A stretch of DNA of 62,798 nt, filler included, from Rhabdomonas costata (lineage: Eukaryota), in assembly GCA_019059605.1 (NCBI GenBank). It is 46 parts of 46 records of this genome, joined end to end, with 100 filler letters (N's around TTAATTAATTAA, not from the genome) between each part and the next. Parts side by side here need not be neighbours in the genome. Positions count along the whole stretch, not along the records: positions 24,615 to 25,879 come from JAHMHO010021301.1; 45 more parts are not named here. One strand, 5' to 3'. The notes beneath the pieces are model-generated. The model ran no database searches. It had not been told where the DNA came from and saw only the letters and a program-made list of their open reading frames with translations. The position numbers were made by a program, and so were the translations under genes. How positions within the stretch are numbered: the first letter of the stretch is position 1; each line of letters begins with the position of its first letter. Of this stretch, positions 23,248-28,600 are shown in pieces.

Positions 23248-24288
23248 AACGAAGTTGCCAGCGTAGTACCGGCCGTCCGCGTAGCGCAGGATTCCCTTGC
23301 CATGGCTGACCCCGTTGCGGACCTCCCCATCATAGCTGTGAAACCAAGGAGGCTCCGAAAACTGAGGATTTCTGTTCGCTTCCCAGCCGCAAAAGAAAAA
23401 AGGTTATGGCGTAGGAAGGTAAGGCTGTACTTCGTACGTCGTCAACTCATAAAAGCAACTTCTGAGGGGAAAATGAGTGGCACAGAGGCAGGACCTATCA
23501 CCATTGGCCCAGCGAAAGACACCCCGACCATCCTTCAGGTCGTGCTTGTAGTCTCCATCATAAGTGTCGCCATTTGCCCAGCGATAGTACCTTAGAAAAG
23601 GGGGGAAAGCAAAGAAAGAACACAACACAACGCTGCTTGAACTTAAACTTGAGCTTGAATCAGTTGAAAATAACAACAGAGAGCCACTTTTCGAAACATC
23701 ACTGTCCCTAAGTCAAAGAAAAAAACTGTCACTGAGGCAGTTGTTGGCTTTAAGGACATAGGACGTAAGAGACAGGCATACCTTCAGTCAAGATTCTTGT
23801 GCAGAGCACCGCTCAACTACGCTTAAAAACTGATTAGAAAAACAGCAGACACAAAGACGCAAGGAGGACCCTTTTCCGTTGCGATGATCACGGTCCCACT
23901 CGCCATCGTAGTAGTCCATGTTCTTCAGGGTCAGCTTCCCCCAGCCATGCTTGCGGTTGTTCTTGAAGGAGCCCTCGTACACCCCCTCTGCCGTCCGCAG
24001 GGTTCCCTGGCCCTCCATTCGCCCATCAACCCACTCGCCCTCGTAGTGGTTGCCGTTGCTGAACTTCATCACTCCCTTGCCTTCCATCCGATCACTGACC
24101 CAGTCGCCCTCGTACACATCGCCGTTGGTGAACTGAAATATCCCTTTCCCGTGCTGAACACCCTTGCGAAACTCCCCCTCGTAGACCTCGCCGTTGTGCC
24201 AGATGAACTTCCCTCGGCCGTGCAAGAGACCACCCTTGGTCTCCCCGATGTACTTTCCAGCGTCATAAATAAGCGTTTGAACCGGCAT
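23248..24288 (-). CDS. MORN-repeat protein, 5' part (exons 24288-23870, 23590-23495, 23335->23248)
   Basis: Many YxGxWxxGxxxGxG repeats. Two phase-2 GT-AG introns restore the repeat (NGKG|YYRWANG, GDS|YDGE). Confidence 0.95.
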
Positions 24289-25389
24289 GGCAAGTCATCA
24301 AAATACTCTTTTAAAAAAAGCGCTAGAACAACAAGAAGAAAATACAGCATATAAGACCGAGAAAAAAGAACATTAGAAGCAATACAAATGCAGAGGCCAT
24401 ACTCAGGTCAGAAGCGCTGGCTATCACTGAAATGATATTGTCCGCGGCACCTCAAAAAGTCATGGCCGAAAAATATTCACTCCAGGTTAGGCATTTTCGA
24501 ACATTTTTGAAGGCNNNNNNNNNNNNNNNNNNNNNNNNNNNNNNNNNNNNNNNNNNNNTTAATTAATTAANNNNNNNNNNNNNNNNNNNNNNNNNNNNNN
24601 NNNNNNNNNNNNNNGGTTGGGGAATTGACGCTTTTTTTCATCAGGGAAATTAAAATACTGCCTTCAAACAAGACAAAGTCAAAGGGTGGTATGACAGCAA
24701 AATGCACATCTCTCATCCAGTGCTTGTAACTGGGCCTGCTCTAACGTCAGGTGACCGTGTCACAGCGTGTCACCGTTGCACGGACAAAAAACAAACACAG
24801 GCATGTTGCGGAACCTCTGACAGGAGCACTCATTAATTCCAGGGGTGTGGGGGGGGTGTCGTCCACTGGTTGGTATCAGGTTTCCAGTGACGACATAAAC
24901 GAGAACAGAACACACTGCAGGCGAAGTGCTTGCGTGTGATTATGTGAGTGTGGGTGTGAGCGAGTGAGTTTAGCAATGCGTAGAAAGGACCTGCTCTGGC
25001 GCGTCAGGAACAGCTGGCCCCGCCGTGGAGGCGGGCAAGGGTTGCTCCGGGACTTTGGGGGCCTTGTCCTGTCGCATTCACCCCCACACCCCGCTTCCAA
25101 AAAAAACTATTTGCTTCTTGTACCGCACACTGACAAAAAACAAAACACGGACAACGACTGGATTCACTTGACAGCAGTCTGCAGCACCAGCGCCTGTGCT
25201 CTTAGCGCGGCCTTACCACCATCCCTCCTCAAACACACACTCTCATCTGACGTTGCACTTTTATCAGGTCGTCTTGTCCCCAAGAGGCGGTGGAGAACCT
25301 GAAGGCAGGGCATGTTTTTTTGACGGCTATTACAACGAACTGACGAACTGTTGCCAAAACATGCGACACAACGAAGAAAAAAGTGAAAC

Positions 25390-25650
25390 CTGCGGCTTCT
25401 GCTTCAGCAGGGCGACCCGGCCCACCGCGCCGAGCCGGCGGCAGGCAAGGGCTATGGCGAAAGTTTCCCGGGGCCTCAAGAAGTCAAGCAGGCCGGCCCA
25501 CACCTCGTCGGAGAGGCCCAGCGCCGAGCCCTCGGGCCACCCCTTCACCTCCACTAGCTCCACCACAACCACCCCCGGGGGGACTTTCCCGCGGAGCTGC
25601 TCCGGGGAGTGAGAGCGTACGAAGAAGCTGGTGCCCGGCAGGAACAACAC
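25390..25650 (-). CDS. Exon encoding an ART-domain C-terminus fused to an F-box motif
   Basis: VLFLPGTSFFV…VVVVELVEV matches the ART terminal strands (E)VLFxPxTxFxV…IxLxE. It is followed by LGLSDEVWAGLLDFLRPRETFAIALACRRL (F-box). The 261-nt phase-0 exon is AG/GT-bounded. Confidence 0.65.
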
Positions 25651-28600
25651 CTGCGCCCCGAGGAAACAACGTAACGAAAGACGGAAAGAAATACCCTACA
25701 AGCATGAAGGGACCAAGAACAAGAGAGTGAATGAACATCTCCCAAGAGGGGTCAAACGTTCCGTGTGCGGGTGTTGAGTCACCGAGCCGGGATTTGCTCG
25801 CCGTTTCGACCTATTCTTCCGGGAGATCGGACAGAACCCGCCCTAAAATCCGTGAGACTCCCACCAATAGCATTCACACNNNNNNNNNNNNNNNNNNNNN
25901 NNNNNNNNNNNNNNNNNNNNNNNTTAATTAATTAANNNNNNNNNNNNNNNNNNNNNNNNNNNNNNNNNNNNNNNNNNNNTGTGTTGTGGAGCCAGTATAC
26001 GGCCTGCACATATTATCCCATGGGCACGCCGTATACTGGCTCCACAAAACACAATAAAACTATGCCATTACCGATTCCCGTTTATTGATTGATTATCCCG
26101 CTGGATTGCCGATTACCATGCCTCTTTTACCGTGGCTCCGGAAGGTGTGGGTTGCCGACTACAACCAAAACGCGCATTTCACCACTCGATTACAGATTAT
26201 GATAAGTTGAATCCGAATTCGACACGTCAGGCCGAGGTCCTGTACTATACTCCCCCCAAAAAAGGAGAGCAACCAGAGCGAGCGGGAAGAGGAAGACGAG
26301 GAGACGGGGGAGGCTAGTTCAGGGAGAGGGGAGGTACCAATAAAAGAATCCAAGCTACCAAAACTATTTTTGACACGTACGTGTATGGGCAGCCGAGACG
26401 TACGGTGCCATTTATCTCCCCGCCCTCTGGTAGGTAAACTCATTCCCCTGCTGAAGACCCAGATGCCGTGGAAAGACCCGGGGACTTGGTAGCTGGAGAG
26501 GTGGAGGGGGCTCGGGCAGTGCCCCAGCATTTTCGTCTAGCATCAACAATGGCCATGATGGCGGAGGCTGCTGCTGCTGCTGCTGGTAGCGATGGTGACT
26601 CGGCGAGCGTCGACTCTGACGCAGGAGCTACGAGCGCTGATCTTGGGAGCGGCACTGATTGTCGAGCAGGCTTGGTCCTGGGCACCGTTTCGTACAAGCA
26701 TGACCCGTCTGCTTTGGGCGCGCCCGGGACTAAGCACCATGATCCCGTGTCATCAGATGTTGACGTTGCTTACCTCGCGGCGGCTGCATTGGAGGAAAAG
26801 CCGCCCACCTCTCCGTCTTGTCCGAGCTATCCCCCTGATTACCGCCCCTTCCTCCCGGTAGGGTTACCGAGGTTTTTTTTTTTGCTTTTTGTGTATGCCC
26901 CTCTAATCTCTCGTGTTCCTTTTTGTAAATTGTGTATTCTTGGTGCTGCACCCCGCACGGTTCACGATATGATGTGTCAGTTCTGAGCAGAAGAACATCA
27001 CAAAATCCCAGGGTCTGCTGCGTCTCCTTGTGCAGATCCCATCCGGGACCTATTGCCCATGGTGACTTTAGCAACGCCGACAATGCCTCCTGCAGCGGCA
27101 GCTTGCCTTGTGTTGGCCCTAGGGAACGCTGCTCTGATGAGTAGCAGCTGCTGAAGGCCGAGACATCGGCGATGGTACGGTTCACACCCCATTGAGCGGG
27201 CATCCCCTATGCTTTTGCTGATGAAAAACCAAAACTACTGGTGAGTNNNNNNNNNNNNNNNNNNNNNNNNNNNNNNNNNNNNNNNNNNNNTTAATTAATT
27301 AANNNNNNNNNNNNNNNNNNNNNNNNNNNNNNNNNNNNNNNNNNNNTCCAGCGGCACGACCACCAAAAGATGTAGGTGCCACGTAAGAGTTCCCGCAGCA
27401 TAGTTGGAGTGTGACACTTTGTCAATTTTTGTGCTTTCCATTTTCATGTAACGGTCCTCTTAATGTCAGAAACCGATTCTTTCTCCTCTCGATCGATGAT
27501 CACTCCTTGCCCGGAAACACATACTTTTGCTCACATTTCCCTCTTACGAAAATCCCCTTTTGGCCAAATGACCGTTCTGGCCATTCCCACTTGACCATTG
27601 CTACTGTCTTTTCCCTGCACAACACCAGTTGCGTTTTTCGTGCTTTTCTTCCTGTTTTCGGTTTCATTTGGTACCTCTTTTCTCACGCGGACCTTTTGGT
27701 CACAATATTTCCCACTCTTTTCATGAACATTTGCTTTCCATTTCAAGCCTTTAACCACACTTCTTCTCTCTCTTAATTCCCGTCTTTTTGTGCGTGTTTT
27801 TGTGTGTGTTTTTGGTTTCTTCTAACGTTTTTTTGGAATGGGAAAGAGGAGTTTCAGCTAATAAATCTAACGCATCAGCAAAGTATTTTTTAAGTAAGTA
27901 AGTATCAGTAAACCGGGCTCTGAGCCCAGTACGAGGTTCGGGAGACCGATCCATCTCACATGGTAGCAGAGGTTCTGTTCGAACTACCGGACTCAGCAGT
28001 TTGAATTTGTTTTTTGTACTTTCTACCGACTTTTTGTGTCCATGTTTTTAATTTTTTCTAACAAATTTGAAAAAAGGGTTTATTTTGAAGGTTTTGTTTT
28101 ATTTCTATTTCCGCTTTTTCACTACCGGTTTTCATGGAGAAGAAATTCTTTTTTGAAAGGGAATTCCCCACCGTCCGAGAGAAAAATTAGTGCGCCATCA
28201 CTCACCTTCTTGGCTCCAGGCAACCCAGTCTTCTTCTAACAAAACCTTTGCAGTCATTTTCAGGGAGCCAGGACACCCAGATTCACGTACCTTGGTCAGC
28301 CTACCGCAGCACCCCCTGTCAGTGTTTGCACAGCAGTGAGATCACCAACTCTAATGCCTGCCGTCCAAGCTACTGAGACGACTCCAGTGGAGTTGGACGT
28401 CGCAGTTTAGTCACACGCTTATCGCTCATGGACTTGGAGCCTGTTTGGCTCTCTCAACTACTGCTTTTTCAACTAACGGAGCAACCCCAATGCCAAACGT
28501 TGCCGTTGCCAGCAATTCCCGACATTGAGACGAGCGCTTTTTAGAGTACCGCGAGTCCCAACAGGGGCCGTGACAGAAGAGAGTCCCCCCGCCACACCAA

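Follow-up and report, generated by a model that had tools for sequence, protein, structure and literature searches.

The window (positions 1-62798, the whole 62,798-nucleotide stretch of Rhabdomonas costata DNA that was analyzed) carries on its minus strand, at positions 25390 to 25650, an exon of 87 codons that is in phase 0 at both ends. Its translation (protein P0001) runs without a stop through 87 residues, VLFLPGTSFFVRSHSPEQLRGKVPPGVVVVELVEVKGWPEGSALGLSDEVWAGLLDFLRPRETFAIALACRRLGAVGRVALLKQKPQ, in which the sequence VELVEV ends at residue 35 and a segment beginning LSDEV starts at residue 46, with 10 residues between them. The exon is GC-rich overall (69.3%), with values of 88.5% for third and 46% for second codon positions, whereas its two flanks have a GC content of 52.8% and 51.2%; the drop is sharp at both exon borders. 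On the upstream side, a pyrimidine-rich tract ending in cag (25651-25695, minus strand, with the AG at 25651-25652) represents the putative 3′ end of an intron, and on the downstream side a putative donor GT lies at 25388-25389 (minus strand), where the GC fraction drops from 0.77 to 0.47. Because the reading frame stays open on both sides of the exon (25330-25695), its borders were inferred from these splice signals, the GC step and three homologues rather than from a transcript. A 261-nt exon on the minus strand, encoding VLFLPGTSFFV…VELVEV and then a gap of about 10 residues, had been proposed earlier for this locus, and both the translation and the splice signals confirm it.

The genomic context of this exon is short. 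According to its map of N-runs, the window is a pseudo-molecule of about 46 unrelated contigs of 1265-1266 bp, arranged in descending order of length and joined about every 1367 bases by a linker (N44-TTAATTAATTAA-N44) that holds a stop in all six frames. Because the window consists of joined contigs, synteny between features more than about 1.3 kb apart is meaningless. The contig with the exon is 1265 bp long and occupies positions 24615-25879, and all other parts of the window belong to different contigs. Passages of the report on the R. costata draft assembly describe very short contigs (N50 1194 bp, 51.6% GC), introns that are mostly of the GT/AG type, and an assembly released without gene prediction (PMC8219788), a description that fits the material analyzed here. 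Only 229 bp of sequence lie upstream of the exon on its contig, and the upstream exon is absent from positions 24615-25879. A comparison of this contig with the rest of the window gave no match, and a tblastn search of the window with the family, in which the upstream exon was sought, returned only the exon at 25390-25650 itself.

The remainder of the window appears to hold ordinary material. From 404 open reading frames of at least 70 aa, 106 with high GC3 were scanned against Pfam, and the matches were to common pieces of eukaryotic genes (WD40, MORN and EMP70, a protein kinase, and a binding domain of the adenylate-cyclase type). No ADP-ribosyltransferase (ART), F-box or Skp1 match occurred among these 106 frames. 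Much of the neighboring contig is filled by a 168-aa open frame with MORN repeats (23791-24294, minus strand; PF02493, E 1.3e-32). A WD40 repeat exon (1400-1663, plus strand; E 9.9e-11) and an EMP70 endomembrane-protein exon (51370-51804, minus strand; E 4.6e-10) each lie on a contig of their own. A 329-aa open frame at 59078-60064 (minus strand) has a weak match, below the cut-off, to PF25493 (E 4.4e-4), which is the periplasmic-binding-protein-like domain of receptor adenylate cyclases. Finally, two exon pieces of a protein kinase share one frame on the plus strand (53372-53905) with a stop between them at 53612-53614, and the kinase profile continues over this gap (positions 29-83, then 87-125). 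A read-through stop was considered for this kinase gene and rejected, as the stretch from EYTPG|gt to ag|GSISS is an ordinary intron.

A small family of relatives

A full HMMER pass with the exon through 1.84 billion representative proteins yielded four matches at E≤0.001. Three are true relatives: P0003 (89 aa, E 2.5e-8), P0004 (144 aa, E 6.9e-6) and P0005 (311 aa, E 3.0e-5), the last of which appears to be a genomic read-through. All three align along the whole exon, and 22 of its 87 positions are invariant. The fourth match, P0006 (756 aa, E 4.4e-4 when summed over seven stretches), is a NACHT-HEAT repeat protein whose single repeat units resemble residues 47-80 of the exon, and we treated it as unrelated. 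Conservation of this frame in the three relatives shows that the stretch at 25390-25650 is, as judged from sequence, a coding exon and not a chance open reading frame.

Searches of other collections added little to this family. A word-indexed protein database, queried with the exon, the family profile and residues 1-60 of P0005, gave nothing beyond P0005. The exon had no match among metagenome contigs, and viral and prokaryotic genome contigs held no relatives. One metagenome locus matched by P0005 (L001) was rejected because it is bacterial, carries ABC-transporter genes, and shares only a chance antisense frame containing FLPGTCFC. When used alone, the window exon matched no Pfam family at E≤10 and no NCBIfam family, had no usable match in the ESM Atlas, and produced only chance matches to PHROGs families of unknown function (E 0.16-0.82). 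Sequence searches of the PDB likewise gave either nothing or chance matches (CD2BP2, E 1.3; FurB, E 1.2). Within the data searched, then, the family is real but tiny, and it is lineage-restricted.

The gene is unlikely to end with this exon. In all four sequences a valine codon lies within a few residues of the end of the alignment (Q|V in the window, T|V in P0003 and P0004, and K|V in P0005), and since valine is encoded by GTN, a common GT donor after the alignment end would fit. This shared valine codon suggests that the protein probably continues in further exons. One speculative candidate for the next exon has 26 codons, DKAPKVPEQPLPASTAGPAVPDAPEQ, at 24991-25068 (minus strand), where AG and GT flank a phase 0 segment. 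It is proline-rich and sits in the only other GC-rich patch of the contig (65-68%), and homology offers no support for it. If the protein does continue, the F-box-like motif described below need not be its end; it may be internal and followed by a further C-terminal part, as in ordinary F-box proteins.

The ADP-ribosyltransferase-like half

The exon begins with VLFLPGTSFFV (25618-25650, minus strand), a sequence of the kind that follows the catalytic Glu-x-Glu in R-S-E ADP-ribosyltransferases and that is predicted, at low confidence, to form a strand. The pattern VLF[LP]PG..F.V is kept in all three family members that reach this far. The putative last strand of the ART domain is GVVVVELVEV (25546-25575, minus strand), in which V27, V29, V30, E31, L32 and E34 are invariant in all four sequences. 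AlphaFold2 models of the exon and of P0005 are unusable as folds (mean pLDDT 46.1 and 44.3), and the secondary structure predicted for the exon, again at low confidence, is strand, strand and three helices. Both models place strands at VLF...V and VVVELxE (E30-35 in the exon model), and the strand-helix-strand part of P0005 that matches this region is the most confident portion of its model, with a block pLDDT of 64-80.

The most informative relative for this half is P0005, although its domain content is obscured by the way it was predicted. The gene calls for P0005 (residues 61-179) and P0004 (residues 1-40) include the translation of CT-rich introns that by chance lack an in-frame stop. Because these introns are read as a Pro/Ser/Leu/Phe-rich pseudo-protein, the ART motif is hidden from ordinary domain scans. 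P0005 consists of 60 ordinary residues (...WPAFSSASTRV...SPYKAEEE), then a translated intron of about 120 residues that starts with Val (GTN) and ends in ...PAQ (CAG), and then VLFLPGTCFCV with the rest of the exon. P0004 reads ...FTLQ|VLFPPG at the corresponding point. Thus, as in the window, CAG immediately precedes the same valine in both P0004 (...LQ|VLF) and P0005 (...AQ|VLF), and these junctions indicate a common intron position directly before this valine in all three sequences that reach it.

When the translated intron is set aside, the upstream exon of P0005 resembles an ART. Its residues 1-60 have PF01129 (ART) as their sole Pfam match, with an E of 0.0066 and 16.2 bits versus a cut-off of 22.3. 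The match places residues 9-60 on profile positions 140-190 of 222 and runs to the last residue of that exon. Because it stops at position 190, the last 32 profile positions are left for the VLF.PG strand. With the intron included, whole P0005 gives the same match more weakly (E 0.11, 12.2 bits). The same 60 residues were also submitted to the ESM Atlas, where PF03496 (ADPrib_exo_Tox), PF01129 or both were annotated in 26 of the 30 nearest named clusters listed (scores 0.88-0.93), a result that by the tool's own figures is a lead and not proof. No solved ART was recovered with these residues in a PDB sequence search, and a tblastn search of phages gave three chance matches (E of at least 6).

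The details of this upstream exon also bear on the catalytic motifs. The original prediction had the catalytic Glu encoded by the final codon of an upstream exon that the contig lacks, and in P0005 Glu residues are indeed seen at that place: Glu-Glu-Glu (AEEE) are the last residues before the intron that shares its position with the window junction. The exon's own contig holds no S-x-S motif of this kind. In P0005 an S-x-S-like sequence, FSSAS, lies 37 residues before EEE, and the usual spacing between S-x-S and Glu-x-Glu in R-S-E enzymes is about 40 residues. Of the upstream motifs that had been named for checking (YRG, STS and ExE), P0005 therefore offers an S-x-S-like element and a Glu-x-Glu, whereas the Arg of the triad (the Y-R-G region) is present in none of the four family sequences, none of which extends that far toward the N-terminus.

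Taken together, these observations make it probable that the first 35 residues of the exon are the end of an ART domain. The evidence was obtained with a homologue (46-49% identity) instead of the window gene, and no family member reaches the curated Pfam cut-off for an ART. The proposal of an ART C-terminus at this locus thus gains support from the sub-threshold PF01129 match and the ESM Atlas result in P0005, but the window exon itself contributes no Pfam or NCBIfam match.

The F-box-like half and competing explanations

The second half of the exon, LSDEVWAGLLDFLRPRETFAIALACRRLGAVGRVALLKQKPQ (25390-25515, minus strand), is a candidate F-box-like helical segment, recognized by 11 invariant residues, the Pfam matches of its homologues and three predicted helices. 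The residues kept in all four sequences are L46, D48, W51, A52, L58, P60, E62, R72, L73, R78 and L81. By eye, the invariant residues appear to coincide with hallmark positions of the F-box (L-P/S-D-E, L13, P15, an acidic residue at 17 and a basic-basic-hydrophobic run at about 27-29), whose consensus has an L-P-x-E opening, then a conserved Leu, a turn of Pro-x-Asp/Glu, and basic-basic-aromatic residues last. The hallmark LPD is found in three of the four members, and in the window copy Ser replaces Pro to give LSD (LSDE). The three predicted helices span residues 48-57, 60-69 and 75-82, with pLDDT values below 60.

Two of the homologues point to the F-box independently. The top Pfam match of P0003 is PF12937 (F-box-like; E 0.012, 15.8 bits versus a cut-off of 24.3, profile positions 2-34 of 47), and its second is PF00646 (F-box; E 0.015, 15.7 bits versus 20.5, positions 1-25 of 43). 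PF00646 is also the sole Pfam match of P0004 (E 0.027, 14.8 bits versus 20.5, positions 4-36 of 43). The matches of the two proteins cover the residues that correspond to this segment of the exon and keep the register of the profile start. Among the trimmed pieces of the four family members, PF00646 is found in two and PF12937 in one, in every case below the curated cut-off, and neither the window exon nor the P0005 piece gives any match. PDB sequence searches with the exon, the family profile (E≤10), P0003 and P0004 recovered no F-box protein. Foldseek found nothing at E≤0.001 with the low-confidence exon model. Five F-box chains (1fs2_A, 5ibk_E, 8if6_A, 7zbz_S and 6byh_I), all from Skp1 complexes or SCF structures, are among the 40 weak matches listed, and they offer a faint hint only.

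On this evidence, we lean toward the view that the tail is F-box-like, and we would assign a lower likelihood to its actual binding of Skp1. The original prediction of an F-box is accordingly upheld in part: sub-threshold matches to PF00646 and PF12937 in two of the four members favor it, but the window's own copy scores nothing. Because the curated thresholds were not reached, the exon is not filed as a member of either Pfam family, even though it would most probably work like the ART and F-box families.

There are other ways to account for the same residues. Perhaps the ART end is real, and the helices that follow it are a family-specific extension unrelated to Skp1, such as a capping helix bundle or one hairpin of the HEAT/ARM kind. 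In that case the likeness to an F-box would be no more than what any short amphipathic helix-turn-helix tends to show. This explanation, to which we give something like one chance in a handful or slightly better, is consistent with F-box scores that all lie below cut-off and that arise in only two of four members, and with the failure of PDB sequence searches to find an F-box structure. It also draws on the fourth match of the library search (P0006, E 4.4e-4), because at least five individual repeat units of this NACHT-HEAT protein can be aligned to residues 47-80 of the window exon with 32-35% identity. However, the score of P0006 is a sum over seven repeat copies, the window exon has a single unit, and HEAT families (PF13646 and PF02985) match none of the four members at E≤10, while F-box families are the top matches in two. 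The resemblance is also largely specific to the window copy, since its HEAT-like LGAVG is replaced by LSSAG, LSSVA and LSTVA in the other members. Furthermore, the invariant residues are, by eye, closer to the F-box pattern than to the HEAT pattern.

A somewhat less probable explanation is that neither half is what it looks like, and that the exon belongs to a lineage-specific protein of unknown fold in which short motifs agree with known families by coincidence. No family assignment, indeed, rises above threshold, Pfam and NCBIfam give no match for the window exon by itself, the structure models are of low confidence, and a family of four sequences does not permit a strong profile. Several findings nevertheless speak against coincidence. 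Pfam and the ESM Atlas, which are independent methods, both give an ART for the upstream exon of P0005, and the ART match stops exactly where the VLF.PG strand should begin. The 37-residue spacing between S-x-S and Glu-x-Glu falls within the range of known R-S-E enzymes, and an F-box is the best match of two homologues independently. That both halves should match by coincidence is less likely. It is far more improbable still that the stretch is unexpressed, either as a pseudogene fragment or as a frame that GC-rich DNA leaves open by chance. Although the antisense strand is likewise open (128 codons), the high GC3 is specific to the frame, the splice signals are clean, and conservation in three other sequences is evident at the protein level and concentrated at hydrophobic and motif positions.

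The explanation that we favor, with a confidence that is about evenly balanced between acceptance and doubt, is that an ART end, a 10-residue linker and an F-box-like motif are encoded by one exon in a small, lineage-restricted family. As part of the same explanation, and held with equal reserve, this coding exon would lie inside a nuclear gene with introns that belongs to a euglenid-like protist. The exon would encode the last two beta-strands of a mono-ADP-ribosyltransferase domain of the R-S-E type (ARTC or exotoxin-like), whose catalytic Glu-x-Glu would be carried by the preceding exon that is missing from the 1265-bp contig. The linker would then lead into a three-helix motif of the F-box type that is about 40 residues long. 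The fusion of an ART to an F-box within one exon, as first proposed, thus remains plausible and has sub-threshold support for both halves, although no curated cut-off is reached for either.

Known systems and possible functions

The likeness to ARTC and other R-S-E enzymes (PF01129 and PF03496), whose members include vertebrate ecto-ARTs and C3-like exoenzymes, can be followed through both exons. In the upstream exon of P0005 it covers profile positions 140-190 with the S-x-S and Glu-x-Glu motifs, and in the window it appears to continue with VLFLPGTSFFV after the catalytic Glu and then a final hydrophobic strand. In contrast to the established enzymes, the window family scores below cut-off, offers neither a signal peptide nor an Arg motif for inspection, and has an F-box-like motif following the putative domain within the same exon. 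To our knowledge, no such motif follows the ART domain in the same exon elsewhere in the ARTC or R-S-E family.

F-box proteins that carry an enzyme domain do have precedents, which include KDM2A and KDM2B (JmjC plus F-box) and the F-box helicase FBH1. The similarity lies in the combination of a catalytic domain and an F-box in one polypeptide, by which the enzyme is presumably delivered to Skp1 and SCF. The difference is that the enzyme here would be a putative ART, with the F-box-like motif only 10 residues behind it and with an F-box likeness that is sub-threshold. Couplings between ADP-ribosylation and ubiquitination are also established, as in the WWE-RING protein RNF146, Deltex with PARP9/14, and the mART-PDE effector SidE of Legionella. 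In each of these, as in the arrangement considered here, one machine connects the ubiquitin system with a writer or reader of ADP-ribose. However, they employ RING or DTC ligases, or an ART that acts on ubiquitin itself without E1 or E2, and we know of none in which an R-S-E ART is joined to an adaptor of the F-box/SCF type.

The literature that we surveyed is consistent with this impression. No description of an ART-F-box fusion was found in the full-text articles searched, although such a fusion may be listed in the main review of ART domain architectures (Aravind et al. 2015). The original prediction, in which this architecture was not recognized as described, agrees with the articles searched. 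The F-box passages of three comparative genomics papers place F-boxes solely within LRR proteins or in effectors of their own (PMC7955679, PMC3417536, PMC3482391), and a Legionella ART survey makes no mention of the F-box (PMC12522546). If real, the arrangement would be an apparently undescribed pairing of two known modules.

Given such a pairing, it is tempting to speculate on how the protein might work. The F-box-like motif might dock the enzyme on Skp1, which would place the transferase within an SCF-type cullin-RING ligase. There, the transferase could serve as the substrate-engaging module that chooses or marks targets for ubiquitination, or it might modify partners that are bound to the ligase. 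We regard this SCF-coupled mechanism as tentative and more doubtful than the arrangement of modules itself. The same doubt attaches to the chemistry that it would entail, in which a target, ubiquitin or ligase components would be ADP-ribosylated while on a cullin-RING ligase, with ubiquitination coupled to that modification.

The reading as a whole is built from 87 residues on an orphan contig together with three anonymous homologues. If the F-box likeness should prove superficial, what remains is a fragment of an ordinary lineage-specific ART paralogue. If the reading is true, however, it would reveal new wiring, in which a transferase is fused directly to an SCF adaptor motif, a type of adaptor that ART-ubiquitin systems are not known to use. 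Crosstalk between the two modifications is known from a few architectures, namely WWE-RING readers, Deltex/PARP pairs and bacterial SidE effectors, and the new one would belong to a lineage of free-living protists in which ubiquitin and ADP-ribose systems have hardly been studied. Perhaps, then, euglenid-type protists possess a small family of active, SCF-docked ARTs with a working F-box, a prospect that we consider possible but doubtful at this time.
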